The position numbers and the translations under genes are program-made. Of a stretch of 64,000 bases of DNA, positions 7,364-58,943 are shown piece after piece. The DNA is from Bacillus thermozeamaize (GTDB lineage Bacteria > Bacillota > Bacilli > ZCTH02-B2). Below the pieces are notes generated by a model. It worked only from the letters and a program-made list of their open reading frames with translations, was not told the origin of the DNA and ran no database searches. The stretch is taken from contig LZRT01000085.1 in assembly GCA_002159075.1 (NCBI GenBank), forward strand, positions 6,177 to 70,176, given 5' to 3'. Each line of letters starts with the position of its first letter. Within the stretch, counting starts at the first letter, position 1.

Positions 7364-9553
7364 TTACCCGCTGTGGAAACGCACTTCACCCTGAATCTTG
7401 TATTTTTTGAGCTTTTGGTATAGGGCCGTGCGGCTGATGCCGAGTTTTTGCGCCGCGAGGCTCCGGTTGCCGCCTGCCTGCTCAAGCGCCTGCAGGATGG
7501 CCTGCTTTTCTACATGCGCGAGCAAGTCGCGATGATTGATCGTATGCTGGATGGACGGCTGCAATGGTTCAAAAGATGCCGGTTTGGGCAATCCAGGACT
7601 TTGGATCATTTCCTCAGTCCTTTTTTCTTTTTTTGAGGATCTGGAGAAAGAGGGGGAATGGAGTTCCTGTGGAAGGTGACGGGGTTCAATCCAGGAGCCG
7701 GAACCAAGATGCATGGCCCGTTCCAGGACGTTTTCCAGTTCACGGACATTTCCAGGCCAGGAATGCGCCTGCAGCAGCTGCAGCGTTTCCGGCGTGATGC
7801 CGATGACTTTTTTGTTCATTTTTTGATTTAATTTTTTAATGAAATGCTCGCATAACAGCGGGATATCATCGAGGCGTTCACGCAGCGGCGGAATGGTGAT
7901 TTGGATGACGTTGATCCGGTAGTAGAGATCCTCCCGAAATTTCCCCTCCTTGACCAACTGCCGCAGGTTTTGATTGGTCGCCGCCACAATCCGCACGTCC
8001 ACCGCCCTGGTTTTGGTATCCCCGATCCGCTCAAATTCCTGCTCCTGCAAGACACGAAGCAGTTTGGCCTGTAAAGCCGGTGGCATGTCGCCGATTTCGT
8101 CGAGAAAAAGCGTGCCCCGGTCGGCCAGTTCAAATTTCCCCGGTTTTCCCCCTTTTCGGGCGCCGGTAAAGGCTCCCTCGACGTAACCAAAAAATTCTGC
8201 CTCCAACAATTCGGAAGGAATGGCCGCGCAATTGACCTTAATAAATTTTCCTGTGCGGCCTGATGCCTCGTGAATGGCCTCTGCGAACAGTTCTTTTCCC
8301 GTCCCGCTTTCGCCGCAGATGAGGATGGTAGAGAAGCCTTTGGCGGCGAGGTATGCCTCTTTTTTGACGGAATTCATTTGGCCGTTTTGTGAAACGATCC
8401 GATCAAAAGCGTTTTCCTTTGTAATCCGGTTCAGTTCTCCCCGATAATACGTGAGTTCGCTTTCCAGTTGTTCCAGCCTGCGGAACACATCTTTCCATTG
8501 ATCCAGGCGATGAAAAATCAGTTTCGCAATGACCCCTTCCGATCGCCCTGACTGAACGATCGGGTGCAGGGTGATCACGCATTTCTTCCCCGCGATATCG
8601 CGGATTTCTCCTTCGATCCGCTCTTTTGCAGCCAGCACTTGTTGAACCGGCAGTTCCGGCGCGATGACAGCGGCAGGCCGGCCAACCACTGCTTCGTATT
8701 CAAGTCCATAGAGTTCCAAAAAAGCTGCGTTGACCATCGTGACGATCCCTTGTTCGTCCGTGATCAACACGCCGTCATAGGAGAGGCCCAATGCGCTCTG
8801 CAGGGTCCGTTCCAGTTTTTTTGTCGTTTCCAATTCTTTGGCTACCTGTTCAAAACTGGTGATGTCTTTCAGAACAGCCATGGCCCCCGTGATGTTTCCC
8901 CATTCCCGCAAAGGGATAAAGGATCCAATGACAGTGGCGTTTTTCAGCAGGATCTTTTTGGATTCCCGAACCTCTCCTTGTTCGATGGTAAGGGAAAAAT
9001 CCGCATTTAATTCCGGCAAAATCGCTCCGAGCCAGTTGCCGATCACTTCCTCCCGCGGAATGCCGAACAGCGACTCAGCCGCTTGGTTATACGTGATGAC
9101 CTTGTGTTCCAGGTCTACAGAGAGGACAGCATCCTGCAGGTGTTCCACCAACATGCTGTGCCGAGTGAGGAGCAATTCGGTTTTGTTGAGAAAGCCGCGA
9201 ATGATGTCTGCTTTCCCCAAAACCCCGACCGCACGTTGCTGTTCATCCAGTACGACACCGTGCGCGACGTTGTTTTCGGTGAGAATTTCCCTTGCTCTTT
9301 CGATGGTGGTTTCTTGTGAAAAGCTGACCACTTGTTTCCGAATGGCAGGGGTTACCGGGGAGTCGATGGGCGCTCCGGATAGCAGCGAACGGTAAATCGT
9401 ATATTTGGTCACGATTCCTTCCAATTTTCCTTCGGAATTGACGACGCAGGCAACGTCCGAGCGGTGTTTCAGAAAGGCTTTCAGACAATCGCGCATCGTA
9501 TGACGAGGCGTGATGGAGATAAAGTTGGCCGATAAAAAATCTTTTGTTTTCAT
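7364..9553 (-). CDS. Sigma-54-dependent transcriptional activator (EBP) with N-terminal CBS pair, PAS domains, AAA+ sigma-54 interaction domain and C-terminal Fis-type HTH
   Basis: AAA+ motifs [15 protein letters not shown] and GAFTGA (sigma-54 contact). C-terminal [24 protein letters not shown] start sits 6 nt after GGGAGGTG on the minus strand. Confidence 0.85.
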
Positions 9554-9586
9554 CGTCAACACCTCCCGGATCAGTGTGTTTCTTGG

Positions 9587-9600
9587 TTTACAAATGTAAA
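9587..9600. promoter_or_regulatory. Candidate upstream activator sequence (TTTACAAATGTAAA) for the sigma-54 promoter at 9696
   Basis: TACA-N2-TGTA inverted repeat about 100 bp upstream of the -24/-12 element. The same motif recurs upstream of three other sigma-54 promoters in the window. Confidence 0.4.
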
Positions 9601-9695
9601 TATAAAATCACTATGTTATCTATTATAAACAGATAGAATAATAATACAAGTAATAAATAACCTATATTAACAGTGTTTTGTATCTTGAGACAAAT

Positions 9696-9711
9696 TGGCA
9701 TGGCGATTGCT
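9696..9711 (+). promoter_or_regulatory. Sigma-54 (-24/-12) promoter, TGGCATGGCGATTGCT
   Basis: GG-N10-GC spacing matches the TGGCAC-N5-TTGCW consensus. Lies in the divergent intergenic region between the EBP gene and the ACAD operon. Confidence 0.6.
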
Positions 9712-9774
9712 AAGAAAAAGTGACGAAATGTTGGGGTTGATCAGAACGATTGCCGGAAAGGAGTGGAGGACAGC

Positions 9775-10932
9775 ATGCCTTATCCACCTTACTTTACAGA
9801 GGAACATGATGCGTTTCGGGAAGAGATCCGTCATTTTTTTGCGACAGAGGTGGCTCCATATGCGCCGCAGTGGGAGGAACAAGGGTATTTTCCGCTATCC
9901 ATCCTCCGAAGGATGGGAGAGTTAGGGTACTTGGGCTTGAGTTATCCCGTTGAGGTAGGGGGACGTGGCGGAGATTATTTCATGAGCGTCGTGATGGCAG
10001 AGGAAAAGGCGCGATGTGGCGCAGGAGGATTCGGCATGGCGATCGCCGTCCAGACCGACATGGCCACCCCGCCGATTTACCAATTTGGCACGCCTGAGCA
10101 GATCGAACGCTTTTTGAAACCGGCCATCCGTGGTGAAAAGCTGGCCTGCCTGGGCATTACCGAACCAAACCACGGTTCTGACGTGCAGTCGATCGAGACG
10201 CGTGCCTACCGCGACGGGGATGAGTGGGTGATCAACGGCAGCAAGCTGTACATCACAAATGGCCCCCGGGCCGATTTCATTACGTTGGTGGCCCGCACAT
10301 CCGATGCCCCCGGGTACAAGGGAATCAGCCTGTTTCTTGTCGAACTGGACCGGCCAGGCGTCTCGGTGGCCAAAGTGCTGGACAAGGTGGGAATGCGTTC
10401 CTCCGACACGGCGGAATTGGTGTTCGACAATGTGAGAGTTCCGCATGAAAATTTGCTCGGGGAAGAGGGCAAGGGGTTTTACCAGATTATGTGGGAACTG
10501 CAGGGAGAGCGGGTGATCAGCGCGGCCGGGTCGGTCGGTTCCGCGCAGTATGCCTTTGAGCTGGCCTGCTCATATGCCCAAGGGAGAGCGGTGGCTGGCA
10601 AACCGCTGATCCGGAATCAGGTGATCAGACACATGTTGGCAGAGATGGCGACTGAAATTGAGGCGGTCCGGCAAATGGTGTATGCCACGGCTTACCGGTT
10701 TGCACGGAAAGAAGCCACCCCTTGGGAGATTTCGATGGCCAAGCTGGCCGCTTCGCAACTGGCCCACAAGGTGATCGATCAAACGCTGCAAATCCACGGC
10801 GGAAACGGCTACACCATGGATTATCCGGTGGAGCGGATGTGGCGCGATTCCCGCCTGCCCCGGATTGGCGCCGGAACAGATGAAATCATGAAAGAGATCA
10901 TCGCCAAAGGATTGCACATCATTGAAAGATAG
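9775..10932 (+). CDS. Acyl-CoA dehydrogenase
   Basis: Canonical ACAD N-terminus PYFTEEHDAFREEIRHF. Length 385 aa. Paralog of the ACAD at 40578. ATG follows AAAGGAGTGGAGG. Confidence 0.9.
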   Translation: MPYPPYFTEEHDAFREEIRHFFATEVAPYAPQWEEQGYFPLSILRRMGELGYLGLSYPVEVGGRGGDYFMSVVMAEEKARCGAGGFGMAIAVQTDMATPPIYQFGTPEQIERFLKPAIRGEKLACLGITEPNHGSDVQSIETRAYRDGDEWVINGSKLYITNGPRADFITLVARTSDAPGYKGISLFLVELDRPGVSVAKVLDKVGMRSSDTAELVFDNVRVPHENLLGEEGKGFYQIMWELQGERVISAAGSVGSAQYAFELACSYAQGRAVAGKPLIRNQVIRHMLAEMATEIEAVRQMVYATAYRFARKEATPWEISMAKLAASQLAHKVIDQTLQIHGGNGYTMDYPVERMWRDSRLPRIGAGTDEIMKEIIAKGLHIIER

Positions 10933-10979
10933 TCCTTTGTTGAAAGCGAAACTGCCGAAGATGATTGGAGTTGAGAAGC

Positions 10980-12125
10980 ATGTTTGAGTGGCTGTTTAGG
11001 GAAGAACATCAGATTTTTCGCAAAAGCGTCCGGCGGTTCCTGGAGAAGGAAATCGCGCCCCACGTCGCGGAATGGGAGCGCCAGCGCGCCTTGCCTCGTT
11101 CCGTGTTCAGGCGCTTTGGGGAAATGGGGTTTCTCGGTTTGGCTGTACCCGAACCGGCAGGCGGTGCTGGTGCCGACCCTGTGGCGGAAGCCATTTTTTA
11201 CGAAGAGCTGGGGCGTTACGGGACAGGAGGGGTGGCAGGATCTGTCGGTTATCACGCCGGCTGCGCCCTGCCATTGGTGGCTTCATATGGCGGCACGGAG
11301 CTAAAGGAGCGGTACCTGCAACCGTCCCTTCTCGGTGAGCAGCTTGGCGGACTGGCTCTGAGTGAACCGGAAAGCGGGTCCGAGCCCGGGAAAATCCGGA
11401 CGGTTGCCCGGCGGGATGGCGAGGGGTATCGCATCACTGGCGTCAAGAAATTTGTGACCAATGGCGATAGGGCAGATTGGCTGTGCGTCTCAGCGCGGAT
11501 CGAAGGCCAGGATGAGGTGAGCCTTTTTCTCGTCGACACCCGGGCTGCGGGGGTTGGTCCGAAGCGAAGCTTGCGCACGCTGGGGTGGCGTGCGGCGGGG
11601 CTGGCAGAGGTGGAGATGCATGATGTCGCAGTGCCTGCCAGCCATCTGTTAGGCGGAGAGGGCCAGGGCGAAGCGATCCTCGGCCAGTTCGCTCCGCGGG
11701 AGCAATTGATGCTGGCGCTTTTCTGCATCGGACTGGCCGACGCGGCGCTGGAGGAAACGATTGCCTACAGCAAGCAGAGAAAGCAGTTCAACCGGACCCT
11801 GAACCAGTTTCAGGTCCTGCAGCACAAGATGGTGGATATGGCCGTGGAGAGGGAAAAGGCGCGCCATTTGGCTTACCGGGCTGTCTATCTGCTGCAACAG
11901 GGGCAGGAGGCGGTGACCGTAATTTCCATGGCCAAGGCTTACGCCGGCGAAATGATCAAACAGGTGACCGATGCCGGCGTGCAAATCCATGGCGGGATGG
12001 GATATATGATGGAAACACCGATTCAAAGATATTGGCGGGATGCCCGGGCGCTGTCCATTGCCGGGGGGACGACACAGTCGGTGAGGGAGAAGCTCGCAGA
12101 GAGGCTTCAATTGACAGGGAATTGA
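10980..12125 (+). CDS. Acyl-CoA dehydrogenase (second of a tandem pair)
   Basis: N-terminus MFEWLFREEHQIFRKSVRRFLEKEI. Length 381 aa. Paralog of the ACAD at 41751. Confidence 0.9.
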   Translation: MFEWLFREEHQIFRKSVRRFLEKEIAPHVAEWERQRALPRSVFRRFGEMGFLGLAVPEPAGGAGADPVAEAIFYEELGRYGTGGVAGSVGYHAGCALPLVASYGGTELKERYLQPSLLGEQLGGLALSEPESGSEPGKIRTVARRDGEGYRITGVKKFVTNGDRADWLCVSARIEGQDEVSLFLVDTRAAGVGPKRSLRTLGWRAAGLAEVEMHDVAVPASHLLGGEGQGEAILGQFAPREQLMLALFCIGLADAALEETIAYSKQRKQFNRTLNQFQVLQHKMVDMAVEREKARHLAYRAVYLLQQGQEAVTVISMAKAYAGEMIKQVTDAGVQIHGGMGYMMETPIQRYWRDARALSIAGGTTQSVREKLAERLQLTGN

Positions 12126-12189
12126 TGACAGGGGATGAACCAATGGCCGGATGATGGAACGGAGGCCAACCAGAGAAGGAGGTAGCGGG

Positions 12190-13791
12190 ATGGTTCGCGA
12201 CGATGAGCAACGTGCGAGGAGACGGACGGCAACAGAAGATGCAGCAGATATGACCATTGGAAGCCTGGTCGCTGAACTGGAGGAGAAAAAGGAGCGGATC
12301 CGCCGGGAGATGGGAGGGGCGGCCGCCATCGAACGGCAGCATCAACGGGGCAAGCTGACCGCCCGGGAGCGGATATCGTTGTTGTTTGATCCGGGAACTT
12401 TTGAGGAAATGGGGATTTTGGATTATCAATTGGGGGGCGACCCGGCGAAAACGGCGGCAGACGGTGTGATCACGGGAACCGGGAAGATCCAGGGCCGTCC
12501 TGCCTGTGTGGTGGCGTATGATTTTACGGTGATGGCCGGTTCGATGGGCCGCAGTGGAGGCGTCAAGGCGGCGCGGATGCGGGAGTGGGCGATGAAACAC
12601 CGGATTCCTCTCATCTGGCTGATCGACTCAGCGGGTGCCCGCATCCAGGAGTCGGCGAATTCCCTCTTTGCCCAAACGGGAGACATCTTTTTTGAACAGG
12701 TGATGATGTCCGGCGTGATTCCCCAGGTCTGTGCGGTGATGGGTCCCGGGTTTGCCGGCACCGCGTATATTCCGGCCCTCTCCGACTTCGTGCCGATGGT
12801 CAAGGGAACCAGCTTTTTGGGGCTGGGCGGCCCGCCTTTGGTCAAGGCGGCGATTGGAGAGGAGATCAGTGAGGAAGAGCTGGGAGGGAGCCGGATCCAC
12901 TGCGAGATTTCGGGAGTCGGAGATCTGGAGGTGGAGGATGATGCGGCCTGCATCCAGGCGGTGCGGGATTACCTGAGTTACTTTCCCCTGAATTGTCAGG
13001 AGCTGCCGCCTGTCCTCCCCACAGATGATCCGATTGACCGGTCCTGTGAGCGGATCAGTGAATTAGTGCCGTTGGCCACCAACAAGCCGTTCGACATGTT
13101 GGAACTTATCCGGGAGATCGTGGATCATGGCCAGGTGTTTGAAATCAAGCCGAAGTGGGCGCGCAACATGATCACAGCGCTCGCCCGGATTGGCGGCCAT
13201 TCGGTGGGGATCGTCGCCAACCAGCCGAAATGGATGGGAGGAGCCATCGATGTCAACGCTTCGGACAAGGCGGCGAGGTTCATCAATCTCTGTGACGCGT
13301 TCAACATTCCGTTGCTGTTTCTGGTCGACACGCCTGCCTTTTTGATCGGATCGGCGGTGGAGAAGGCCGGGATCATCCGGCACGGGGCCAAATTTTTGCA
13401 CGCCACTGCCTCCGCCACGGTGCCCAAGTTTACGGTCGTCGTGCGCAAGGCGTTTGGCGCCGGATATTACGTGATGAACGGCAGGGCCTATGAGCCGGAC
13501 CTGTTTGTCGCCTATCCCAACGCCCAAATCAGTTTGATGGGTGCCGAAGGAGCGGTAAACATCATTTTTCGCCGCGAAATCGCGCAGGCAGAAGATCCGG
13601 AGGCCCGCCGCAGGGAATTGATCGAAGAGTATCGGCGCCGGATCTCGACAGATATGGTGGCCGGTGCGGCACTTGTGGATGAGATCATCAACCCGGCGGA
13701 TACCCGTCGCATCCTGGCTTCTGCCCTGGAAAGAACGCGGGGCAAACATGTGGAACGCCCCTGGAAAAGGCGCCCTGTCCTGCCGGTCTAG
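12190..13791 (+). CDS. Acyl-CoA carboxylase carboxyltransferase subunit (propionyl-CoA/methylcrotonyl-CoA carboxylase beta-like)
   Basis: PccB-like N-terminus (ELEEKKERIRREMGGAAAIERQHQRGKLTARERISLLFD). Length about 530 aa. ATG at 12190 sits 7 nt after AGGAGG; the N-terminus could alternatively start at 12250. Confidence 0.8.
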   Translation: MVRDDEQRARRRTATEDAADMTIGSLVAELEEKKERIRREMGGAAAIERQHQRGKLTARERISLLFDPGTFEEMGILDYQLGGDPAKTAADGVITGTGKIQGRPACVVAYDFTVMAGSMGRSGGVKAARMREWAMKHRIPLIWLIDSAGARIQESANSLFAQTGDIFFEQVMMSGVIPQVCAVMGPGFAGTAYIPALSDFVPMVKGTSFLGLGGPPLVKAAIGEEISEEELGGSRIHCEISGVGDLEVEDDAACIQAVRDYLSYFPLNCQELPPVLPTDDPIDRSCERISELVPLATNKPFDMLELIREIVDHGQVFEIKPKWARNMITALARIGGHSVGIVANQPKWMGGAIDVNASDKAARFINLCDAFNIPLLFLVDTPAFLIGSAVEKAGIIRHGAKFLHATASATVPKFTVVVRKAFGAGYYVMNGRAYEPDLFVAYPNAQISLMGAEGAVNIIFRREIAQAEDPEARRRELIEEYRRRISTDMVAGAALVDEIINPADTRRILASALERTRGKHVERPWKRRPVLPV

Positions 13792-13825
13792 CTTTCAGTG
13801 CAGTCTGAGCGAAAGGAGGGAGCGG

Positions 13826-15421
13826 ATGGTGGTGTCAAATGCAGCATTGGAAAAGAACTTGATTCAGCGCGTCTGCGTGGGGGATATCCCTGCACGTTCC
13901 GCCAACCATTTTCCGGATAAGGTGGCGATCATCGACGAAGGGCAGCGATTCACCTATCGGAAGTTTAATGATCTTGTCAATTGCCTGGGAAATGTCTTGC
14001 TCCAGCTGGGCGCCAGGCATCAGGACGTGGTGGCTGTCATGTGCCCGAATACCTGGGAGATGCTGGTGAGTTACTTTGCCTGCGCGAAGGCCGGACTGGT
14101 CGCCATGCCTGTCAACCTCGGGCTGAAGGCGCATGAGGTGGCCTACTGCTTCCACGATTCGCAGGCGAAAATCCTGATTGCGGATGGTGCCTTTGCGGAG
14201 ATGATGTCCCGTGTCATTCCGGAGTTGCCGCATTTGCAACACGTGATCTGGACCAGGGTGGAAGGTGAGCTTCCCGCTGTCGGAAAAGCGTCCCACCGGA
14301 TGGAAACGTTGCTTTCATCCGGTCAGTCCCGGGAAGTGGAAACGTTGATTGATGATCGGGATATCGTCCAGTTGCTGTACACCAGCGGAACCACTTCAAA
14401 TCCCAAAGGGGTGCTGACAAGCCATGTGGCCGTGACCATTGCGGCGCTTTCATCTGCCTTGCAAAACAAGACGGATCACACCCATGTCACCCTGTCGGTC
14501 TTGCCGCTGTTTCATTGTGCGATGCTGAACGCAGGAGCCATTCCCTTGCTGCTCGTCGGCGGCACCCTGGTCCTTGTGAAAAAGTTTGACCCGCTTCGGG
14601 TGGCTGAGCTGATTGAGCGGGAACAGGTGACCCATGTGGGATTGCTGCCGATGATGTACCAGGCGATGCTGGATCATCCTGCCACTCGTTCCCGCGTTTT
14701 TCCCTCTGTCAAGATGGCGCGGTATGCGATGACGCCCCTTCCGGAGAAGACGTTGCACGAATTGAAAAAGATGTTTCCCAACGCGGATCTGCTGCTGGGT
14801 TCCGGGCAGACCGAATTCACCCCGCCGACCACGTACCAGCGGCCGGAACACCAGTTTGTCAAGTCAGCCTCTTGGGGAGTGGCGACCCCGATGGTGCAGA
14901 TTGAGATCATGGACGAGGAAGGAAATTTGTTGCCCAGGGGTCAAATCGGCGAGATTGTCTATCGCGGGCCGCACGTGATGGAAGGCTACTTGAATCTTCC
15001 CGAGCAGACGGCTGAATCGTTCCGTTATGGATGGTTTCATAGCGGCGATTTGGCCTGGATGGACGAAGAGGGGGTGGTGTGGTTCGCGGATCGCAAGAAG
15101 GACATGATCAAGACCGGAGGGGAAAATGTGGCCTCCATTGAAGTGGAACGGTTGTTGATGGGACATCCCGCTGTGCAAGAGGCTGCCGTCATCGGCTTGC
15201 CGCATCCCTACTGGGGGGAAGCGGTGACCGCCATCGTCATGCGCAAACCGGGAGAAGAAGTGACGGAAGAAGCGCTGATCGCCTATGCCAAGGAACATTT
15301 GGCGGGGTTTAAGGTTCCGAAAAGGGTCATCTTCACTGACGAGCTTCCGAAGACCGGCACCGGAAAAATCCAGAAGCATCTGCTGAGGCAGAAATTCCAA
15401 GATCTGTACCACGAGACATGA
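13826..15421 (+). CDS. AMP-dependent acyl-CoA synthetase/ligase (FadD/LcfB-like)
   Basis: AMP-binding motif YTSGTTSNPKGV. ATG follows AAAGGAGGGAG. The upstream in-frame extension in the ORF track is only an artifact of no in-frame stop. Confidence 0.85.
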   Translation: MVVSNAALEKNLIQRVCVGDIPARSANHFPDKVAIIDEGQRFTYRKFNDLVNCLGNVLLQLGARHQDVVAVMCPNTWEMLVSYFACAKAGLVAMPVNLGLKAHEVAYCFHDSQAKILIADGAFAEMMSRVIPELPHLQHVIWTRVEGELPAVGKASHRMETLLSSGQSREVETLIDDRDIVQLLYTSGTTSNPKGVLTSHVAVTIAALSSALQNKTDHTHVTLSVLPLFHCAMLNAGAIPLLLVGGTLVLVKKFDPLRVAELIEREQVTHVGLLPMMYQAMLDHPATRSRVFPSVKMARYAMTPLPEKTLHELKKMFPNADLLLGSGQTEFTPPTTYQRPEHQFVKSASWGVATPMVQIEIMDEEGNLLPRGQIGEIVYRGPHVMEGYLNLPEQTAESFRYGWFHSGDLAWMDEEGVVWFADRKKDMIKTGGENVASIEVERLLMGHPAVQEAAVIGLPHPYWGEAVTAIVMRKPGEEVTEEALIAYAKEHLAGFKVPKRVIFTDELPKTGTGKIQKHLLRQKFQDLYHET

Positions 15422-15494
15422 CGCCATCGACGGGTTTTCCATCAGATGTTGCAAGAAATGACGAAGACAGAGCGGAAGAAGGGGGAGTGAAAAG

Positions 15495-16634: not shown

Positions 16635-16719
16635 GGGATCACTGAGAACCCTGATCATGCACGTGAATGGGGAGAATAAGTGGCTGACCAGGTAAGCTGC
16701 AAACCGGTTTAGGAGGAAA

Positions 16720-17244
16720 ATGATGAGAACATTCGCTCTGATTATCCGACGGCTCAATGAAGCGATGATGTGGGTGGTTGGTATATTGATTCTGATCATG
16801 GGGTTGACGCTTTTCTATGACGTAATGATGCGTTATTTTTTCAAGGCGCCAACGGCCTGGTCTTTTGATTTGGCAGGCTGGTTTACCGGGTTGTCCGCTT
16901 TTTTGGCGGGTGGCTACGCGTTGTTGAAAAAGGCTCATATCCGCGTCGATATTTTTTACCAGAAGTTTTCTCCGAGGGTACAGGGGGGGCTGGACGCTCT
17001 GACCTCTGTATTCCTCTTTCTCATCGTACTGATCCTGGTTTGGAAAGGCGGGGAGCGAACCCTGCACAACTTGAATATCGGCGCCGTAGCCAACACCGGG
17101 CTGAACATCTACATCTGGATCAAGTGGCTGATGGTACCTCTTGGAGGGGTGTTGTTGGGCTTGCAGGCCATCGTGAACCTGGTAGATGATGTATACCTCT
17201 TTATCACTGGCAGACATCTCATCGATGTGGCGGAGGATGGTTGA
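16720..17244 (+). CDS. TRAP transporter small permease (DctQ)
   Basis: About 174 aa with four TM helices. ATG follows AGGAGG. Positioned between the DctP and DctM genes. Confidence 0.8.
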   Translation: MMRTFALIIRRLNEAMMWVVGILILIMGLTLFYDVMMRYFFKAPTAWSFDLAGWFTGLSAFLAGGYALLKKAHIRVDIFYQKFSPRVQGGLDALTSVFLFLIVLILVWKGGERTLHNLNIGAVANTGLNIYIWIKWLMVPLGGVLLGLQAIVNLVDDVYLFITGRHLIDVAEDG

Positions 17245-17246
17245 TC

Positions 17247-25883: not shown

Positions 25884-25885
25884 GG

Positions 25886-28512: not shown

Positions 28513-30687
28513 CTATCTGTCTCCGCTGCGGAAGCGAATTTCGCTTTGGATGTTGTGTTTCTTCATTTTCTGGTAGAGGGTGGCACGGCTGATGCCAAGA
28601 CGCTGTGCCGCCTGGCTCCTGTTGCCCCCCGATTGTTCAAGAGCTTGGAGGATGGCTTGCTTTTCCACGTGGGCCAACAAGGTTTGGTGATTGTCTGGTG
28701 TGATTGCCGGAAACGCTTCCGGTTCCTCGGACCGATCAGTGGTTGCTGGTGAAGGAGGCATTTTCGACAGTGAAATGGATGGCGTTTTCCGTTGCAGTTC
28801 ATCTGGCAAGTGATGAGGCTCAATCCAGACCCCTTCGGCGAGGTGCATGGCCCTTTCCAGGACGTTTTCCAGTTCCCGCACGTTTCCTGGCCAGTCATGC
28901 CGCTGGAGAAGTTCCAGTGTCTGCGGTGTGATGCCGATCACCTGTTTTTTCATCTTTTGATTGAGCTTTTTAATCAGGTGTTCAGCTAGGATGGGGATGT
29001 CATCCAAGCGTTCCCGCAATGGGGGGATGTGGATGTGAATGACATGGATCCGGTAGTACAGGTCCTCACGGAAGGTGCCCTGGCGCACCATCTGCCGAAG
29101 ATCTTTGTTGGTGGCGGCGATGATCCGTACATCCACCTGTCTGGTTTGGGTGTCGCCCACGCGCTCAAACTTTTGTTCTTGCAGGACCCGTAGCAGTTTG
29201 GCCTGCAAGGCCAGCGGCATGTCGCCAATTTCGTCAAGGAAGAGGGTGCCCCGATCGGCCAGTTCGAACTTGCCCGGCTTACCTCCTTTTCGCGCACCGG
29301 TAAAGGCGCCCTCGGCATATCCGAAAAACTCCGATTCCAACAATTCAGCGGGAATGGCGGCACAGTTGACCTTCACGAAGTTGCCGGGCCGGCCCGATTC
29401 CTCGTGGATGGCTTCTGCAAAAAGTTCTTTGCCCGTCCCGCTTTCTCCGGTAATGAGGACAGTGGAGGATCCTTCCGACGCGAGATACGCCTCATTTTTT
29501 ATTTTTGTTATTTTTTCATCTTTTGAGACGATCCGATCAAAGGCGCTTTTCTGGGTCATCCGATTCAATTCGCCACGATAATAGCTGAGTTCGCTCTCCA
29601 GTTGCTCCAGCCTGCGGAAGACGTCTTTCCATTGGTCCAATTTGTGAAAAATGATTTTGGCGATCGCGCCTTCGCACTTCCCGCTACGGATAATCGGTTG
29701 CAAGGTGACGACGCATTTTTTGCCGCGGATTTCTCTAATTTCCCCTTCGATGCGTCGTTTATGGGACAGAATTTCCTGGATTGGCAGCTCGGGTGTGACC
29801 ACCGCGGCCGGGTATCCCACCACCTCGTTGTGATCCAGTTGGTAGATGTCCAGGAAAGCAGGGTTGACCTTCGTGATCTTGCCGTGTTCGTCCGTGATCA
29901 TCACGCCGTCGTACGAAAGCTGCAGGGCGCTGTCAAGCGTGCGTTCCAGTTTCTTTGTCGTCTCCAGTTCTTTTGCCACATTTTCATATGAAGTGATGTC
30001 TTTCAGAACGGCTACCGCTCCGGTGATGTTCCCCCAGTCGAGAAGAGGGACAAAGGACCCGATGACGGTGACGGAGGCGAGGCGGATGCGGCATGGCTCC
30101 CGCCGTTCGCCTTTTTCCAGAGCGAGATAGAAATACTCATACAACTCGGGGAAGATGCTGTCAACCGGCTGCCCCAAAACCTTGTGGCGGGGGTAGCCGA
30201 ACAACTCTTCGGCTGCATGGTTATAGGTGACCACCTGATATTGCAGATTGACGGATATGACGGCGTCCTGAAGTTGTTCGACGAGGGCGCGGGTCTGATT
30301 CAGAAGCAACTCCGTCTCGCTGAGAAAGCCGCGGATGATATCTGCCTGTCCCATGACGCCGACGACGCGGTCTTGCTCATCCAGAACCACGCCATGCGCC
30401 ACGTTGTTCTCGATAAAGGTGTCCTTGGCAAATTCGAGCGTATCATCTTGGTAAAAGCTGACCACGTTGCGCCGAATCGCGGGAGCGATCGGGGCGTCCA
30501 GGGAGTGTCCGGCCAGGAGCAAACGGTATAGCGTGTATTTTGTGACAATGCCTTCCAGGTGGCCTTCGGAGTCGGTGACGCAGGCGATGCCGATCCGATG
30601 TTCAAGGAAAGCTTTCAGACAATCCCGTATCGTGTGCTCAGGCGTGATGGAGATGAATTCACGCGTCGAAAACTCCCGGACTAACAC
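28513..30687 (-). CDS. Sigma-54-dependent transcriptional activator (CBS-PAS-AAA+-HTH), paralog of the EBP at 7364-9553
   Basis: Same domain order as the first EBP and roughly 70 percent identical to it. Motifs [22 protein letters not shown] and C-terminal HTH. GTG start sits 6 nt after AGGAGGG. Confidence 0.85.
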
Positions 30688-30713
30688 AAATTTCCCTCCT
30701 GTATAAAAAAATA

Positions 30714-30727
30714 GACAAATGTATGAT
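30714..30727. promoter_or_regulatory. Possible UAS-like site (AGACAAATGTATGA)
   Basis: Partial match (GACAAATGTAT) to the TTACAAATGTA motif, about 130 bp upstream of the sigma-54 promoter at 30851. Confidence 0.25.
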
Positions 30728-30850
30728 TTTAATCTACTTGTTTATCCTATCATCCATTTGGGTGTTCTGCAAATCAAATGATTACCAAGAATCAAGACAT
30801 TTTTATGAAGAATTTTTTACCCGAGAAATGATGGCGTGTTTTTTTGACGT

Positions 30851-30866
30851 TGGCATACTTTTTGCT
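30851..30866 (+). promoter_or_regulatory. Sigma-54 (-24/-12) promoter, TGGCATACTTTTTGCT
   Basis: GG-N10-GC element lies in the divergent region between EBP2 and the Acs-like gene. Confidence 0.55.
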
Positions 30867-30947: not shown

Positions 30948-32912
30948 ATGGAAATTTACGGACACGAAGAATCTTTGAAGATGATTCAGCAAGCGCGCTT
31001 GATCGAACCTTCTGAGTCGATTCGCAGTGTCTCCTACGTCCGCAGTATGAATGAGTATCAACAAAAGTATGAAAAGACAAAGGCGTCTCCCGAATTGTTC
31101 TGGGAAGAGGTGGCCAAAGAGCTCCGTTGGATGGCGCCTTGGAAGGAGGTGCTTACGGGCAGTTTGCCTGATTTCCAGTTTTTTCGCGGGGGCATGATCA
31201 ATATTTGCGACAACTGCGTGGATCGACACCTGGAGACGCACCGGCGAAACAAGGCGGCCATTATTTGGGAAGGAGAAGACGGAAGTTCCAAAGTTCTTAC
31301 TTACCAGATGCTGCACGACGAAGTGTGCCGTTTCGCCAATGTTTTGAAAAGGCACGGCGTGAAAAAAGGGGATGTCATTTCGGTTTACATGCAAAATTTG
31401 CCTGAGACGTTCATCGCGTTGTTGGCCTGTTTCCGCATCGGGGCGGTGTACAATACGGTGTTTGCCGGGTTTTCGCCGGAGGCGCTGCGTGAGCGGATCA
31501 ATGATTCCAAAGCCAAGATCCTGATCACCGCTGATGTCAGTTACCGCCGCGGGCGGGTGATTCCCCTGAAAGAAAACGCCGATAAGGCGATCGCAGAGGC
31601 GCCGACCATTGAAAAGGTGATTGTTTTTCGCAGGGGCGGCGTCGAGGTGCCGATGACCCCCGGCAGGGATCTCGACTGGTCCGAGGAAATGCAAGGAGCG
31701 GGCCGGGATTATCCATGCGAACCTGTGGAAGCGAACGAACCGGGCTTGTTGATTTATACCAGCGGCACAAGCGGGAAGCCGAAAGGGATTGTTCACGCAC
31801 ACGGCGGGTTTTTAGTGGGAACCTATGCCTATACCAAGTATTCCCTGGATCTGCAGGAGCGGGACATCTATTGGAATACCGCCGATATCGGCTGGTTGAC
31901 GTCGCACATTTTCGTCCTGGTGGGCGGACTGGCTTTGGGCGCGACGGTGATCTTGTATGAAGGGGCGTTGGATCATCCCCATCCGGGCCGTGTCTACGAA
32001 ATGATCGAACGCTACCGGGTAAACAAATTGTTTTCGGCACCCACCGCTTACCGGATGTTGGTCAAATTCGGCAAGGAGTTGCCGCAACAGTACGATCTGA
32101 GCAGCTTAGAGCTGTTCGCTTCCGTCGGTGAGCCGTTCAACCCCGAAGCCTGGGAGTGGGTGTACCGGCATCTGGGTGGGGGAAAAGCGGTCATTTCCAA
32201 TACCTGGGGGCAGACGGAAACGGGCGGCACGCCGTTGTGCGGCTTGCCCGGGGCGGTGCCGATGAAACCCGGTTCTTGCGGCGTGCCGCTTTTCGGCCAT
32301 GTATTGGACATTGTGGATGAAAAGGGAGAGTCCTGTCCCGATGGAGTGCCGGGAAACTTGATCATCCGCCGGCCGTTTCCCTCGTTGGCAAGGGATGTGT
32401 ATGGCGATCGGGAACGTTATCTCAACACCTACTTTTCACAGGTGCCTGGGGCCTATTTCACAGGGGACGCGGCAGTGCGGGATGCGGATGGGCACTATTG
32501 GGTGCTCGGGAGGACGGATGATGTGATCAATGTGTCCGGCCACCGCATTTCGACGATGGAAATGGAAAGCGCTCTCGTCGCCTATCCCAATGTCGTGGAG
32601 GCGGCTGTGGTGGAAAAACCTGATCCGATTAAAGGAGCGGTTCCCGTTGCCTTTGTCCTGCTTGAACCGGGTACGGAGAAGTCCAAGGAACTGGAAGAGG
32701 CGCTGATGAACCAAGTGGTTCAGGAAATTGGCGCCTTTGCCCGGCCGGCACGCATCTACCTCGTCGACGCCCTGCCGCGGACACGGAGTGGAAAAATCAT
32801 TCGCCGCATGCTGCGGGAGTTGGTGACGGAAGGACAAGTGAAGGGGGACAGGACTGGGCTTGAGGATGCCGACGCTTTGGAGCAGCTGATGAAAGATATC
32901 GGGAATGTGTGA
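30948..32912 (+). CDS. Acetyl/propionyl-CoA synthetase-like (Acs family, AMP-forming)
   Basis: 654 aa. Acs-type N-terminal region ...FFRGGMINICDNCVDRHLE. AMP-binding motif YTSGTSGKPKGI. ATG follows AGGGGAG. Confidence 0.85.
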   Translation: MEIYGHEESLKMIQQARLIEPSESIRSVSYVRSMNEYQQKYEKTKASPELFWEEVAKELRWMAPWKEVLTGSLPDFQFFRGGMINICDNCVDRHLETHRRNKAAIIWEGEDGSSKVLTYQMLHDEVCRFANVLKRHGVKKGDVISVYMQNLPETFIALLACFRIGAVYNTVFAGFSPEALRERINDSKAKILITADVSYRRGRVIPLKENADKAIAEAPTIEKVIVFRRGGVEVPMTPGRDLDWSEEMQGAGRDYPCEPVEANEPGLLIYTSGTSGKPKGIVHAHGGFLVGTYAYTKYSLDLQERDIYWNTADIGWLTSHIFVLVGGLALGATVILYEGALDHPHPGRVYEMIERYRVNKLFSAPTAYRMLVKFGKELPQQYDLSSLELFASVGEPFNPEAWEWVYRHLGGGKAVISNTWGQTETGGTPLCGLPGAVPMKPGSCGVPLFGHVLDIVDEKGESCPDGVPGNLIIRRPFPSLARDVYGDRERYLNTYFSQVPGAYFTGDAAVRDADGHYWVLGRTDDVINVSGHRISTMEMESALVAYPNVVEAAVVEKPDPIKGAVPVAFVLLEPGTEKSKELEEALMNQVVQEIGAFARPARIYLVDALPRTRSGKIIRRMLRELVTEGQVKGDRTGLEDADALEQLMKDIGNV

Positions 32913-32941
32913 AGCCAAAAGGGAAAGGAGGAAGGGAAGGC

Positions 32942-33316
32942 ATGGAGAACCGCGATCAACGCGCGATGATCGGCATGTTGTTTATCGTTTGTGTCTTGAT
33001 TGCCGGCATGTTGCTCAACCAATGGGCGGTGGTTCTGTATGCGGGCCTGGCGTTAATCGGAGTGAGTCTTGTCGCCGGCATGCGAACCACTCTCTTGCCG
33101 GCGATGGTCGCCCTCATCTATGCATTGTTGTTTTCTCTCACGGTCTGGCTGAGCTTTTTGCAACCCGACGCTTACATCTTGGGCTGGCGGCCCGCAACGT
33201 TTATCGTCGTTTACCTCATCTGGCCGCTCGGTTCCATCCTCGGGGTCTTTTACGCGGTGCTGTTCTCCAAGGAACAGCGAACATTGTCCAACCGGGCCAG
33301 GGGATTGGAAGGATAG
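32942..33316 (+). CDS. Small membrane protein (3-4 TM), unknown function
   Basis: 124 aa hydrophobic protein. Strong RBS AAAGGAGGAAGGGAAGG. Lies between the Acs-like gene and the SSS transporter. Confidence 0.5.
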   Translation: MENRDQRAMIGMLFIVCVLIAGMLLNQWAVVLYAGLALIGVSLVAGMRTTLLPAMVALIYALLFSLTVWLSFLQPDAYILGWRPATFIVVYLIWPLGSILGVFYAVLFSKEQRTLSNRARGLEG

Positions 33317-33343
33317 GCTGAGCATGGGAAGGGGGATATCTAG

Positions 33344-34813
33344 ATGAACAGTATCATTCTGGTGATTGCCATCCTTTATTTGCTTATAACGATGGGGATT
33401 GGAATTTGGGCGGTCAAGCGCACCAAGAGCAGCGGGGATTTCTTTATTGCGGGCCGCAATATCGGGATGTTGACGATGGCCATCGCCGCCTTCGCTTCGA
33501 TTCAAAGCGGCTTTGGTGTCGTCGGCGGGGTTTCGCAAACCTTCAGCAACGGATTGGGATTTGTGGTGGGAGTGATGTTTGCCGCGCCGCTCGGGTTTGC
33601 CCTGACGTGGTTTCTTGTGGGAAGAAAAATTTGGCGGCTCGGGGGTTTGGGCGAGATTTACACGTTAGGGGATCTGGTGGCCAAGCGTTACAATAGCGAA
33701 TCCGTGCGCTTTTGGCTTTCCGTCGCCATTTTTCTCGGTGTGATCGGGTATTTGGGCACTCAGGTGCAGGCAATGGGTGTGGTGATGCAGGCTATCTTCG
33801 GGGGGCCGCTGTTGCTCGGTTCTTTCATTGGTTTGGCGATCATGGCCATTTATAGTGCCATCGGCGGCATGGTGGCGGGAGTTTACACCGATTTGTTCCA
33901 GGGAATTCTGATGGTGCTCGCGGCGGTCGTCGTTTTTTTCTCCGCGTTGCGGGCAGGCGGAGGGGTGCTTGAGATCAACCAGACGCTGCATGCAGAAAAT
34001 CCGGACTTGACGTCGCCGTTCGGGATGATGCCGCTCATCACCATCTTTTGCTGGTTTGTGTTATTCAGCCTCGGTGCGGCCGGACAACCGCATTTTTTGA
34101 CCAAGTTCTTGATGGTGAAAAACGAAAAGGAGTTGAAATGGGGCGCTTTTACATCATCGTTCGCCTACATGCTTTCGACCTTGATCGCGATCGGGATTGG
34201 GTTGGCCGCCTTGTCGCTGTCGATCAAAGGGGAATTTCCGAAGATTTCTTCCCCGGATCAGACATTGACCACCTTTTTGCTGGAATACGCTTCGCCTGTC
34301 GTGGCGGGCCTGGTGATGGCCGGTCTGATGGCGGCGATCATGTCGACGGGCAGCAGTTTTGTCAATTTGGGAGCGGCTTGCATTGTCAGGGATATTCCGA
34401 AAGCACTGGGGATTCAGGTGAAGAATGAGCTGTTCTGGAGCCGGATGGTGACATTGTTGTTGTTTGTGCTCTCATTTCTCTTTGCCGTGTATATGGATAC
34501 GCTGGTGGCGCTTTTAGGCGTGTTTGGTTGGGGAACCTTCGCCACCACCATTTTTCCTGCGGTGGTGCTGGGGCTGTTATGGGAGGGCGCGACGGCCGCG
34601 GGGGCCGTGAGCAGCATTGTGGTTGGATTGGTGCTGAGTTTTGTTTTGGAGGTCGGCGGAAAGTATGGACTCAAGGTGCTTCCTCCGGGCGTGATCAATG
34701 GTGCCTTTACGTTTGCCGTTTCGATTGCGGTGTTTATCGCTGTCTCCATGTTGACGCAGCAGCGGCAAGCGGAACTGGATCATGAGGTGCGCAAGATTGT
34801 CAATGAGGCGTGA
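33344..34813 (+). CDS. Sodium:solute symporter family transporter (SSS; ActP/monocarboxylate permease-like)
   Basis: 489 aa polytopic protein. SSS-family N-terminal pattern ...GDFFIAGRNIG.... Confidence 0.85.
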   Translation: MNSIILVIAILYLLITMGIGIWAVKRTKSSGDFFIAGRNIGMLTMAIAAFASIQSGFGVVGGVSQTFSNGLGFVVGVMFAAPLGFALTWFLVGRKIWRLGGLGEIYTLGDLVAKRYNSESVRFWLSVAIFLGVIGYLGTQVQAMGVVMQAIFGGPLLLGSFIGLAIMAIYSAIGGMVAGVYTDLFQGILMVLAAVVVFFSALRAGGGVLEINQTLHAENPDLTSPFGMMPLITIFCWFVLFSLGAAGQPHFLTKFLMVKNEKELKWGAFTSSFAYMLSTLIAIGIGLAALSLSIKGEFPKISSPDQTLTTFLLEYASPVVAGLVMAGLMAAIMSTGSSFVNLGAACIVRDIPKALGIQVKNELFWSRMVTLLLFVLSFLFAVYMDTLVALLGVFGWGTFATTIFPAVVLGLLWEGATAAGAVSSIVVGLVLSFVLEVGGKYGLKVLPPGVINGAFTFAVSIAVFIAVSMLTQQRQAELDHEVRKIVNEA

Positions 34814-34851
34814 CCGTGATGAAGTCATCTGGGATGAGAGGGGAATGAGGC

Positions 34852-36411
34852 ATGGATGTGGGTTACCTGTTGCGGCGAATCACTGGCGAGACATGCGGCA
34901 TTGATGCGCAACAAGTGGCCTTGCAGTTGGAGGATGGCCCGCGCTGGACGTATCAGGAGCTGCATGAGGTGAGTAACCGGTATGCCAATGCGTTTTTAAG
35001 CATGGGTGTGCAAAAAGGGGACCGGATAGGGATCCTGTTATACAACTGTTTGGAGTACTGGGCCGTTTACTTCGCCGCCGCAAAAATCGGGGCGATTGCG
35101 GTGCGGCTCAACTTCCGCCTTGTCAGTGAAGAGCTGGAGTACGCGTTAAACGACTCGGGGACGAAGATCTTGTGTTTGGAGCCGGCTTTCGTGGAACGGA
35201 TTGAGCCGATTCGCGACCTGGTGCCCGTGACGAAATACATCTGTTTGTGCAGAGAAGGGGAATCTTGCCCGGACTGGTGCGAACCTTGGGAAGTGTTGAT
35301 GGAAGGGGAGCCCGTTGTAAGCGCTTCGATTCCGATCGATGCACAGGATCCGGTGATGTTGATGTATACCTCGGGAACGACCGGAAGACCCAAGGGAGCT
35401 CTGTGGACCCACGCCAACACGCTCTGGTTTTCTTCGATGCAGGTGATGAAATGGGGACTGTGCGCGACCGATGTCAGCATGACGACGGGACCGTTGTATC
35501 ACGTCGGTGCAATGGAGGACTTGGCGCTGCCGACGTTGCTGGCAGGCGGGCGGGTGATCATCACCAAGAGCGGCGGGTTTGACATCCGGCGTGTCTTGAG
35601 GGTCATGGAAAAAGAGAAGGTGACCTATGCGTTGTTGTTTCCCTTCATGATATACGACATGTTGAATCTGGAGGATTTGGCTGCCTATTCGTTGCCCGGG
35701 ATGAAAGCCATCCTCTCCGGCGGCGATCCGGTGATGCCCTGGGCGATTGAGCGGTTAAATGAGCAATTTCCGCATGTCGGCTTGATCCAGATCTACGGTC
35801 TGACAGAAGGCACGCCCATTGCGGCTTCCCTAGACCCGCAGGATGCGGCTGTCAAAGGGCACACCGTCGGCAAACCGTTGCCATTGGTGGAGATCAAGAT
35901 CGCAGATGATTCTGGGCGCACGCTGAAGCGGGGTGAGATTGGCGAAATCTGGATCAAGAGTCCCGCTGTCGCCAGGGAATACTGGGGCAAGCCGGAGGCG
36001 ACGCGGGATACTTTTGTTGACGGCTGGTGCAAGACGGGCGATCTGGGCCGGATCGACGAAGAGGGGTACCTGATCATTTCAGGACGGAAAAAGGATATGA
36101 TCCGCAGCGGGGGAGAAAATATCTATCCGGCGGAACTGGAGGATGTGCTGATCCGTCATCCGGGAATCAAAGATGTGGCCATCATCGGAGTTCCCGATCC
36201 AAAATATTTGGAAGCGGTCTGCGCCGTGATTGTCCCCAAGCCCGAAGCTGAATTGACGGAAGAGGAAGTGATCCGCTACAGCCGGGAGCATCTGGCTGGA
36301 TATAAAACGCCCCGGCATGTGGTATTCGTGGAGGAATTGCCCCGAACGCCATCCGGAAAGATTACCAAGTACAAGTTGCGGGAAGCGTATCGCCATCTAG
36401 GCGAACGGTGA
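34852..36411 (+). CDS. AMP-dependent acyl-CoA synthetase/ligase
   Basis: AMP-binding motif YTSGTTGRPKGA. Length 519 aa. Confidence 0.85.
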   Translation: MDVGYLLRRITGETCGIDAQQVALQLEDGPRWTYQELHEVSNRYANAFLSMGVQKGDRIGILLYNCLEYWAVYFAAAKIGAIAVRLNFRLVSEELEYALNDSGTKILCLEPAFVERIEPIRDLVPVTKYICLCREGESCPDWCEPWEVLMEGEPVVSASIPIDAQDPVMLMYTSGTTGRPKGALWTHANTLWFSSMQVMKWGLCATDVSMTTGPLYHVGAMEDLALPTLLAGGRVIITKSGGFDIRRVLRVMEKEKVTYALLFPFMIYDMLNLEDLAAYSLPGMKAILSGGDPVMPWAIERLNEQFPHVGLIQIYGLTEGTPIAASLDPQDAAVKGHTVGKPLPLVEIKIADDSGRTLKRGEIGEIWIKSPAVAREYWGKPEATRDTFVDGWCKTGDLGRIDEEGYLIISGRKKDMIRSGGENIYPAELEDVLIRHPGIKDVAIIGVPDPKYLEAVCAVIVPKPEAELTEEEVIRYSREHLAGYKTPRHVVFVEELPRTPSGKITKYKLREAYRHLGER

Positions 36412-36456
36412 GTATCGCCGGGCAAGATGTTTGACGGTAAACAAGTGTATATTTTT

Positions 36457-36470
36457 GCTTACAAATGTAT
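36457..36470. promoter_or_regulatory. Candidate UAS (CTTACAAATGTATA)
   Basis: Same TTACAAATGTA motif, about 75 bp upstream of the sigma-54 promoter at 36537. Confidence 0.35.
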
Positions 36471-36536
36471 AGTTCTCTTGCTGGTTTTCATCACGTCGAT
36501 TCCCGTGTTTAACGTCAGAAAATGGAATGAAAGTAT

Positions 36537-36552
36537 TGGCACGGAATTTGCT
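36537..36552 (+). promoter_or_regulatory. Sigma-54 (-24/-12) promoter, TGGCACGGAATTTGCT
   Basis: Near-consensus TGGCAC-N5-TTGCT element upstream of the carboxyltransferase gene. Confidence 0.6.

Positions 36553-58867: not shown

Positions 58868-58943
<76 letters not shown>

Follow-up and report, generated by a model that had tools for sequence, protein, structure and literature searches.

The 64,000-nucleotide stretch of Bacillus thermozeamaize DNA analysed here (contig LZRT01000085.1, positions 6,177 to 70,176 of the forward strand; hereafter the window) carries two genes for sigma-54 activators and four sigma-54 promoters, set among operons of acyl-CoA catabolism. From the sequence and its comparison with relatives, we consider it likely that these elements make up a sigma-54 catabolic regulon controlled by the two activators, paralogous enhancer-binding proteins (EBPs) of CBS-PAS-PAS type. 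Both genes lie on the minus strand, at the coordinates and with the domain architecture given in the original prediction, and each is divergent to a catabolic operon, EBP1 facing operon 1 and EBP2 facing operon 3.

7364-9553, minus strand: EBP1, a one-component sigma-54 activator with a CBS pair, two PAS domains, an AAA+ domain (GAFTGA) and an HTH_8 domain (Pfam)
28513-30687, minus strand: EBP2, a paralogue of EBP1 with identical architecture (Pfam)

EBP1 starts at an ATG at 9553 behind the ribosome-binding site (RBS) GGGAGGTG; the mechanical open reading frame (ORF) is three codons longer, reaching 9562. The AAA+ domain of both proteins is of the sigma-54 interaction type and includes its lid (PF00158, 231 and 235 bits), the GAFTGA loop is present in both, and both end in a Fis-type helix-turn-helix (HTH) domain (E 4.6e-16 and 1.4e-17 in Pfam) whose residues R708, Y712 and K714 are invariant or nearly so among 116 homologues. 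The paralogues are 69% identical over their full length, close to the 70 percent estimated beforehand, with 64% identity in the CBS pair, 62% in the first PAS domain and 78% in both the AAA+ and HTH domains. Their recognition helices are nearly identical and differ at two adjacent positions (SRTAL vs SRATL). EBP1 and EBP2 are equally far from the single-copy orthologues of other Bacillales, and the duplication therefore appears to be lineage-specific. By this sequence comparison, the pair are lineage-specific paralogues of an activator family widespread in Bacillales.

Relatives were collected by scanning one genome per species with the sensor region as query, which gave 38 loci. L001 and L002 lie on one contig of a sister metagenome-assembled genome (MAG), which carries both paralogues and has an EBP1 orthologue at 97% identity; other Bacillales have one activator per locus. 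The four promoters are as follows.

9696-9711, plus strand: sigma-54 promoter 1, TGGCATGGCGATTGCT; orthologous element in the sister genome (L001)
26611-26626, plus strand: sigma-54 promoter 2, TGGCATCAATTTTGCT
30851-30866, plus strand: sigma-54 promoter 3, TGGCATACTTTTTGCT; identical in the sister genome (L002) and in L043-L046
36537-36552, plus strand: sigma-54 promoter 4, TGGCACGGAATTTGCT; identical in the sister genome (L002)

These four -24/-12 elements, placed by the original prediction at the same positions, are the only exact matches in the window to TGGCAYNNNNNTTGCT (the TGGCAY-N5-TTGCT type), against 0.06 expected in shuffles, and none of 100 shuffles reached four. Each has 11 specified bases, and all are intergenic, correctly oriented and 65-239 nt 5' of the first start codons. 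A relaxed scan (at most two mismatches, GG/GC fixed) added one intergenic match, a two-mismatch element at 59871 with no gene start within ~180 nt; all remaining additions fell in coding sequence. The sister genome retains promoters 1, 3 and 4; promoter 2 shows no such conservation. The predicted local regulon under two EBPs is well supported by conserved operons and a shared motif for three of the four promoters (9696, 30851 and 36537), and the place of the fourth, at 26611, is uncertain.

Palindromic sites upstream of the promoters

A TACA-N2-TGTA inverted repeat had been described 75-130 bp upstream of each promoter, in reverse-complement orientation at 26497 and degenerate at the third promoter. 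All four repeats lie where they had been placed, and the distance range holds for three promoters; the third site is 136 bp away (distances are about 107, 113, 136 and 77 bp for promoters 1-4).

9588-9599: upstream site 1, TTACAAATGTAA; ~108 bp 5' of promoter 1, the EBP1 start codon being 35 bp away
26457-26468, 26477-26488 and 26497-26508: upstream sites of promoter 2, within a promoter module at 26372-26646
30713-30724: upstream site 3, AGACAAATGTAT; ~138 bp 5' of promoter 3
36439-36470: upstream sites 4a and 4b, AAACAAGTGTAT and TTACAAATGTAT, with an exact spacing of 20 bp; 98 and 78 bp 5' of promoter 4

Exact matches to TACANNTGTA occur three times in the window (9589, 26498 and 36460; 0.11 expected). 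The 11-mer TTACAAATGTA stands at 9588 and 36459, with its reverse complement at 26497, and the remaining region has the degenerate site GACAAATGTA at 30715. A looser core, ACANNTGT, occurs 16 times in the 64-kb window, and all five of its intergenic matches are sites that precede the four promoters; one of them, the second copy at 36441, was absent from the earlier list of sites.

The same motif recurs across the activator family. In ~30 of the 38 loci, a TGGCAY-N5-TTGCH element is divergent from the activator gene, 100-350 bp away, and the operon behind it encodes a carboxyltransferase, an enoyl-CoA hydratase (ECH), AtuA, its ferredoxin-like partner (AtuA_fd), two acyl-CoA dehydrogenases (ACADs), at least one ligase, MaoC and often a biotin carboxylase. 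More than 25 further Bacillales loci have an orthologous operon that is headed by a -24/-12 element and is divergent from one CBS-PAS activator gene. ACA-N2-TGT is 22-fold enriched in the -220 to -40 windows of these promoters (5.81 per kb, vs 0.26 per kb over 773 kb). Moreover, 11 of 14 adjacent exact ACA-N2-TGT pairs are spaced exactly 20 bp, and matrix scores around 40 exact sites are high only at +/-20 and, more weakly, at +/-40. Peptococcaceae-type homologues have a different helix (GISRSW[LF]YEK, against GISR[STA][TA]LYQK in Bacillales) and a sensor ~25% identical, and no ACA-N2-TGT was found upstream of their promoters. This co-variation of helix and motif ties the motif to the HTH domain of the CBS-PAS activators. 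Judged from these comparisons, TTACAAATGTA is the local form of a family-wide ACA-N2-TGT site. The motif, whose core precedes all four promoters, is not locus-specific and usually comes in arrays of exact 20-bp period.

We scored the window with a weight matrix built from 35 sites of other genera, with the window and the sister genome left out. Five window sites are among the top seven 16-mers of the 64 kb, and the other two lie inside ligase genes. Site 1 scores 11.4 (top 0.01% of the window) and has a weak partner at -20 bp (9566, -3.7); it is kept as TTACAAGTGTAA in L001. The promoter 2 site has partners scoring 8.6 at -20 bp and 1.5 at -40 bp. Site 3 scores 14.2 and is conserved in L002 and in all conspecific haplotypes; the half-site 20 bp upstream of it (30691, 1.3) overlaps the EBP2 RBS. 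Sites 4a and 4b score 15.4 and 11.8, and promoter 4 is the only one in the window with a full pair, the others having one full site and weaker partners. The 4a/4b pair is conserved in L002, where it lies ~100 bp farther from the promoter (at 2612 in that locus; -197/-177 vs -98/-78), which suggests that the array tolerates large changes in distance.

Two observations stand beside these results. A weak sigma-70-like match for EBP2, ATGATA-16-TAAAAT, lies at 30726-30753 on the minus strand and fits the consensus at only 9 of 12 positions. The EBP2 start would then fall within upstream site 3, and EBP2 might repress its own gene. The two high-scoring ACA-N2-TGT matches within acyl-CoA ligase genes are at 18843-18869 and 35038-35053; the match at 18854 overlaps a one-mismatch -24/-12 look-alike, TGGCCTGTCTTTTGCA, at 18843. 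We take these matches to be probably due to chance, an internal promoter at 18843 being possible.

CBS-containing EBPs had been called rare. In Bacillales this does not hold, for more than 100 clusters at 90% identity share the CBS-PAS-PAS architecture across many genera (Neobacillus, Mesobacillus, Brevibacillus, Sporosarcina, Kyrpidia, Effusibacillus, Alkalihalobacterium, Pontibacillus and others). Among 1.84 billion representatives searched exhaustively, 60 (at 50% identity) reach E<=1e-30. By these counts the family is modest globally and ordinary within the Bacillales clade.

Targets and sensors of the candidate regulon

The architecture of the activators, the promoters, the phased site arrays, the pairing of activator with operon and the co-variation of helix and motif, all established by sequence and comparison, are the ground from which we infer binding, activation, ligand and substrate in the following scheme. 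Activator dimers would bind the ACA-N2-TGT palindromes (local form T/G-ACAAATGTA) through their C-terminal HTH domains, the palindromes standing in arrays of 20-bp period 55-200 bp upstream of TGGCAY-N5-TTGCT promoters. A small-molecule signal at the N-terminal sensor modules would lead the AAA+ domains to assemble; the assembly would contact RNA polymerase-sigma-54 at -24/-12 across an AT-rich spacer, and ATP hydrolysis would open the promoter. The targets would be about 28 genes in three operons (9776-26230, 30948-36411 and 36659-49645), with products that would provide an Atu-like carboxylic acid route of uptake, CoA activation, dehydrogenation, biotin-dependent carboxylation and hydration, together with AtuA. 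The amidase unit at 26865-28452, which is imported, may be a fourth target. All four transcription units together hold about 30 genes over 40 kb.

9776-26230, plus strand: operon 1, 14 genes (Pfam), namely two acyl-CoA dehydrogenases, then a carboxyltransferase and an acyl-CoA ligase, the TRAP transporter DctPQM, a further acyl-CoA ligase, an enoyl-CoA hydratase, a pair of PimC/PimD-like dehydrogenases, another enoyl-CoA hydratase, and AtuA with an AtuA ferredoxin-like protein
26865-28452, plus strand: operon 2, a 62-aa ORF (26865-27053) and an amidase (27043-28452), a low-GC cassette
30948-36411, plus strand: operon 3, acetate-CoA ligase (AcsA), a small membrane ORF (32909-33316), a sodium:solute symporter and an acyl-CoA ligase (Pfam)
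36659-49645, plus strand: operon 4, 10 genes (Pfam), namely a carboxyltransferase, a biotin carrier (38330-38539), a biotin carboxylase, MaoC, two acyl-CoA dehydrogenases and four acyl-CoA ligases

Operon 1 is followed by a hairpin with a T-run (26348-26368), and a strong hairpin with a 13-bp stem (49692-49721) closes operon 4. The gene set of operon 4, including a 69-aa biotin carrier with an SMKM motif, adjoins the activator in other genera too. In the window the ancestral unit is split: ECH-AtuA-AtuA_fd ends operon 1, and the remainder is operon 4. Operon 1 also holds a second, paralogous set (carboxyltransferase at 12151, ligase at 13664) of a kind found in Alicyclobacillus and another MAG. 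The Atu-type gene set is present, with the AtuA family (PF07287, 515 bits), its ferredoxin-like companion (PF23544) and Carboxyl_trans, Biotin_carb, Biotin_lipoyl, ACAD, ECH and AMP-binding domains; a comparison of AtuA with solved structures gave no close homologue, and no TetR gene is present. For operon 3, AcsA is above the TIGR02188 cut-off. We set aside an analogy of this operon to Acs-YjcH-ActP: its symporter matches only generic SSF models, and its small ORF gave a weak DUF4233 match.

On the sensor side, the first 126 residues are similar to stand-alone archaeal CBS-pair proteins, and the module that follows is similar to cytoplasmic PAS domains; no activator with a CBS pair turned up among the solved structures compared. 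Across 116 full-length homologues, the first CBS motif never carries the canonical ribose-binding Asp, position 52 being S, A or T, and retains G46, K50 and R55. The second motif retains G110, K114 and D116, position 116 being D in 76% of homologues and E or N in a further 18%. On general knowledge of CBS domains, the second CBS site may therefore bind an adenosine-type ligand, and CoA or acyl-CoA would be an attractive candidate given the regulon.

Two neighbouring regions lie outside these operons. Upstream of EBP1, a cluster at 395-7284 resembles an organosulfur acquisition system. It encodes a CoA-transferase of family III, the binding protein, permease and two ATPases of an SsuA-family ABC transporter, a cysteine-dioxygenase-like cupin, and a flavin monooxygenase similar to DszC/SfnB with scores below curated cut-offs; neither a sigma-54 promoter nor an ACA-N2-TGT site accompanies this cluster. 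At the other end is a low-GC region (58714-62119, 42%) in which four tRNA genes (58714-59204) precede an IS21-type element, the latter comprising an rve-domain transposase (60057-61349) and an IstB ATPase (61346-62119).

The amidase unit and alternative readings

Operon 2 had been predicted to be a horizontally acquired member of the regulon. Its composition is indeed foreign, at 44% GC vs 52-59% in the flanks; its membership is uncertain, as its promoter module appears to be imported and unstable. An ORF previously proposed ahead of the amidase (26744-27046, 100 aa) gives a translation that looks non-coding, which also rules it out as a GatC/AtzG-like partner. The real ORF, at 26865-27053, encodes 62 aa behind a GGGAGG RBS, overlaps the amidase start and is called in six other assemblies and in Aneurinibacillus; it has no Pfam match even at E=1. 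The amidase scores 382 bits against NF006631 (AtzE family), below the cut-off of 461, and no small subunit was recognisable.

26372-26646, plus strand: promoter module of 274-275 bp, with three upstream sites and promoter 2; missing in the sister genome

The sister genome (L002 reverse strand, ~12480-13000) runs from the T-run of the operon 1 terminator straight to AAAAGAATGATTACT. The flanks are 87-97% identical and the module is gone, as a clean indel of 274-275 bp with no target-site duplication or repeat evident at its borders. The module is not a duplicate of another promoter region, with which it shares only a 12-bp motif; the segment is unique in the window. Six independent assemblies with an identical amidase, representing three haplotypes, all retain it. 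In one of these haplotypes (the four assemblies L044, L045, L047 and L048), promoter 2 reads TGGCATCAATTTTTCT, a GC>TC change at -12 (G>T at window position 26624); the resulting TTTTTCT destroys the essential GC. The ~3-kb amidase cassette has two single-nucleotide polymorphisms (SNPs) among the haplotypes, whereas the flanking AtuA and EBP2 genes differ by ~1-2%, which suggests a recent spread of the cassette.

An ENA metagenome contig matches the window, and a B. thermozeamaize MAG has an identical amidase in its annotation. Outside the species, the closest amidase is that of Aneurinibacillus danicus (L040), with 86% protein identity and 82% DNA identity including the 62-aa ORF. There, the same two genes stand first in a nitrile hydratase/nitrilase operon, and the gene of a 961-aa AmiC-like activator (Peripla_BP_6-AAA+-HTH; helix GISRPTLYRKLKEY) is divergent from it. 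The A. danicus operon has the promoter TGGCACAACTCTTGCT, the site TAATACAATTGTAAAT (TAATACAxTTGTAAA) about 115-119 bp upstream and a leader of ~230 nt, and its site, promoter and leader blocks align position for position with those of operon 2. The promoter module thus probably travelled with the amidase cassette.

Further observations concern this unit and the AmiC-like activators. The 239-nt amidase leader contains a 12-codon upstream ORF, MHKDGEELPSGF (26709-26747), with a strong RBS, GGAAGGGAG, and in the leader of Aneurinibacillus a GAAAGGAGGTGAAAT block aligns, and an ORF there likewise starts MHK; the upstream ORF may be a leader peptide or a remnant. An Rfam scan of the whole window, made for a riboswitch in the operon 2 leader, returned only the four tRNAs. 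In Paenibacillus (L052, 6932-8239), the sigma-54 gene itself adjoins an AmiC-like sigma-54 activator.

Several alternatives to the regulon reading have to be weighed. The strongest concerns operon 2: its module may not be a working member, having come from an Aneurinibacillus-like donor and being now either a decaying relic or served by another activator, so that the regulon would have three promoters. We regard this as a serious possibility that falls somewhat short of probable. The A. danicus homology of the genes beside a Peripla_BP_6-AAA+-HTH activator, the positional match of site, promoter and leader, the loss of the entire 274-bp module from the sister genome, and a -12 mutation in one of three conspecific haplotypes that is one of only two SNPs in the cassette all speak for it. 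Yet the 10-mer of the promoter 2 site, TACAAATGTA, is identical to that at promoters 1 and 4, where A. danicus has TACAATTGTA, and its partners stand at exactly -20 and -40 bp, a signature of the CBS-PAS family. ACA-N2-TGT was also rejected as a general site of AmiC-like activators, for three further AmiC-like loci were without the exact core and had no matrix score above 5.6. A co-transferred AmiC-like activator was likewise set aside: the search for a close homologue of the A. danicus activator came up empty, identity falling from 99% to 61%, a weak negative since the genomes are incomplete, and the original partner was probably not transferred with the cassette. Control of the amidase by EBP1 or EBP2 is possible, and we see capture of the amidase by resident activators and a decaying imported promoter as about evenly balanced.

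A second alternative is that the paralogues are partitioned through palindrome flanks or site geometry, EBP1 serving promoter 1 and perhaps 2, and EBP2 serving promoters 3 and 4. We consider this possible, though less likely than not. As is usual for the cis arrangement of this family, each activator has one promoter divergent from it; the helix positions that separate SRTAL from SRATL vary with the bases flanking ACA/TGT across the family, in a small sample that is suggestive only; and site 3 begins GACA where site 1 begins TACA. However, all four promoters share the core ACAAATGTA unchanged, the 11-mer of site 1 (EBP1 side) recurs at site 4b (EBP2 side), the HTH domains share 78% of their residues, and single activators elsewhere serve two promoters with the same motif (L020, L021 and L036). 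The sensors (62-64% identical) are more diverged than the AAA+ and HTH domains (78%), which fits different signals entering a common DNA code. Our preferred reading is that the paralogues probably feed different signals into one shared set of sites.

The palindromes could also be operators of another regulator unrelated to the activators, such as a LexA-type box or the operator of a TetR/GntR fatty-acid repressor, which we judge very improbable. The Bacillus LexA box has the pattern GAAC-N4-GTTC, and some orthologous sites, reading GAACAGTTGTTC, fit it. But the conserved core is ACA..TGT with the two flanking positions variable, and the window sites, TTAC...GTAA, do not fit. The sites are found only upstream of -24/-12 elements beside CBS-PAS activators, with 20-bp phasing, and vanish where the recognition helix differs; no other regulator gene is conserved in these loci. 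The LexA reading was dropped on the variable flanks and this context. Least credible of all is that the -24/-12 matches are chance or non-functional and that sigma-A promoters transcribe the operons: weak sigma-70-like matches do occur in the intergenic regions, but no more often than in shuffles, and this reading fails on the statistics of four perfect, intergenic, correctly oriented matches and on their conservation in place across many genera, next to activator genes that can act only through sigma-54.

Some observations weigh against the two-activator sigma-54 regulon itself. Promoters 1 and 3 each have a single full palindrome, with weak -20 bp partners (-3.7 and 1.3), and the promoter 3 partner at 30691 coincides with the EBP2 RBS. 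The site sequences give no assignment of promoters to paralogues. The operon 2 promoter module has the look of an unstable import, and a strong ACA-N2-TGT precedes an A. danicus operon whose activator has another type of sensor, so that exclusivity of the motif to CBS-PAS activators may be doubtful. The substrate assignment is weak: among solved structures, the carboxyltransferases are nearer to propionyl-CoA carboxylase beta (372 bits) than to geranyl-CoA carboxylase (238 bits), and NCBIfam returned only generic names for the operon enzymes. Finally, the sigma-54 gene of this genome is assumed to be present; no sigL/rpoN gene was seen in the Pfam-annotated parts of the window, short ORFs and the gaps at 58.6-60.0 kb and 62.1-63.0 kb being unscanned.

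If the regulon prediction holds, it names the regulator, the promoter type and the site code (ACA-N2-TGT, 20-bp period) for an operon of many soil and compost Bacillales that includes AtuA, a family of no known function, and the inducing conditions found through the regulator would help to identify the pathway substrate. It would also offer a tractable system in which a sigma-54 activator senses through a CBS (Bateman) module, and a natural example of a promoter module that is present, deleted or point-inactivated among close relatives. A bolder, joint reading goes further: the CBS-PAS-PAS activators would be the master switch of an unstudied Atu-like Bacillales pathway, reading an adenosine-containing metabolite (CoA or acyl-CoA) through the CBS site with the canonical Asp, and imported sigma-54 promoter-plus-site cassettes such as the amidase module would plug into the resident activators through the same ACA-N2-TGT code. 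Taken as a whole, we think this unlikely. If true, these would be the first sigma-54 activators shown to sense through a Bateman module, and near-identical strains would gain or lose members of the regulon through small indels and single mutations at -12.

Comparison with known systems

The mechanism proposed here, an activator beside its -24/-12 promoter acting from upstream palindromes, is textbook, and the CBS-PAS activator family is uncharacterised. CBS has been named among the N-terminal domains of Clostridiales activators (PMC6615313), and acyl-CoA genes have been noted in predicted sigma-54 regulons of Bacilli (PMC12316311). A literature search found no study of the CBS-PAS activator family or of its link to AtuA, and nothing specific on AtuA with sigma-54 or on DUF1446. 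The moderate interest of the locus rests on the activator family, on the handle that it offers on AtuA and on the unstable amidase promoter module.

Among named regulators, PrdR (NCBIfam NF041552) is the best model for EBP1 and EBP2, at 540 and 530 bits over approximately residues 250-720, below its cut-off of 795 bits; no curated NCBIfam model claims either protein. The second PAS, AAA+ and HTH portion of PrdR aligns well with the C-terminal two thirds of the EBPs, but PrdR is without the CBS pair and the first PAS domain, and has other targets.

The Pseudomonas atu and liu clusters serve the utilisation of acyclic terpenes and leucine. Reviewed in PMC4097962, they share matching functions with the window, namely AtuA (PF07287), a carboxyltransferase with biotin carboxylase, acyl-CoA dehydrogenase, enoyl-CoA hydratase and a ligase. 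The regulator in Pseudomonas is the TetR-type repressor AtuR, whereas that of the window is a sigma-54 activator. The window showed no dehydrogenase of AtuB/AtuG type and no gene of HMG-CoA-lyase type, and its AtuA is split from a separate ferredoxin-like ORF, unlike the Pseudomonas protein. For operon 2, the nearest system is the nitrile hydratase/amidase locus of A. danicus, which has the same 62-aa ORF, amidase, sigma-54 promoter and site; it differs in the sensor of the adjoining activator and in its nitrile hydratase and nitrilase genes, which are absent from the window.

The closest parallel in arrangement is BkdR with the SigL-dependent bkd operon of Bacillus subtilis, together with the related AcoR and RocR systems. 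BkdR and the window EBPs have in common that they are one-component sigma-54 activators of a Bacillus relative with a PAS sensor, an AAA+ domain and a Fis-type HTH, and in both cases the activator gene stands beside the -24/-12 promoter of an acyl-CoA catabolic operon, on which it acts, or would act, from upstream sites. BkdR, AcoR and RocR are among the eight B. thuringiensis activators described, none of which has a CBS pair (PMC4428206). The window EBPs, by contrast, have an N-terminal CBS pair before two PAS domains. They also differ from BkdR in being duplicated and divergent from their targets, in facing an AtuA and biotin carboxylase set instead of a branched-chain keto-acid dehydrogenase, and in a site that is an ACA-N2-TGT array of 20-bp period.

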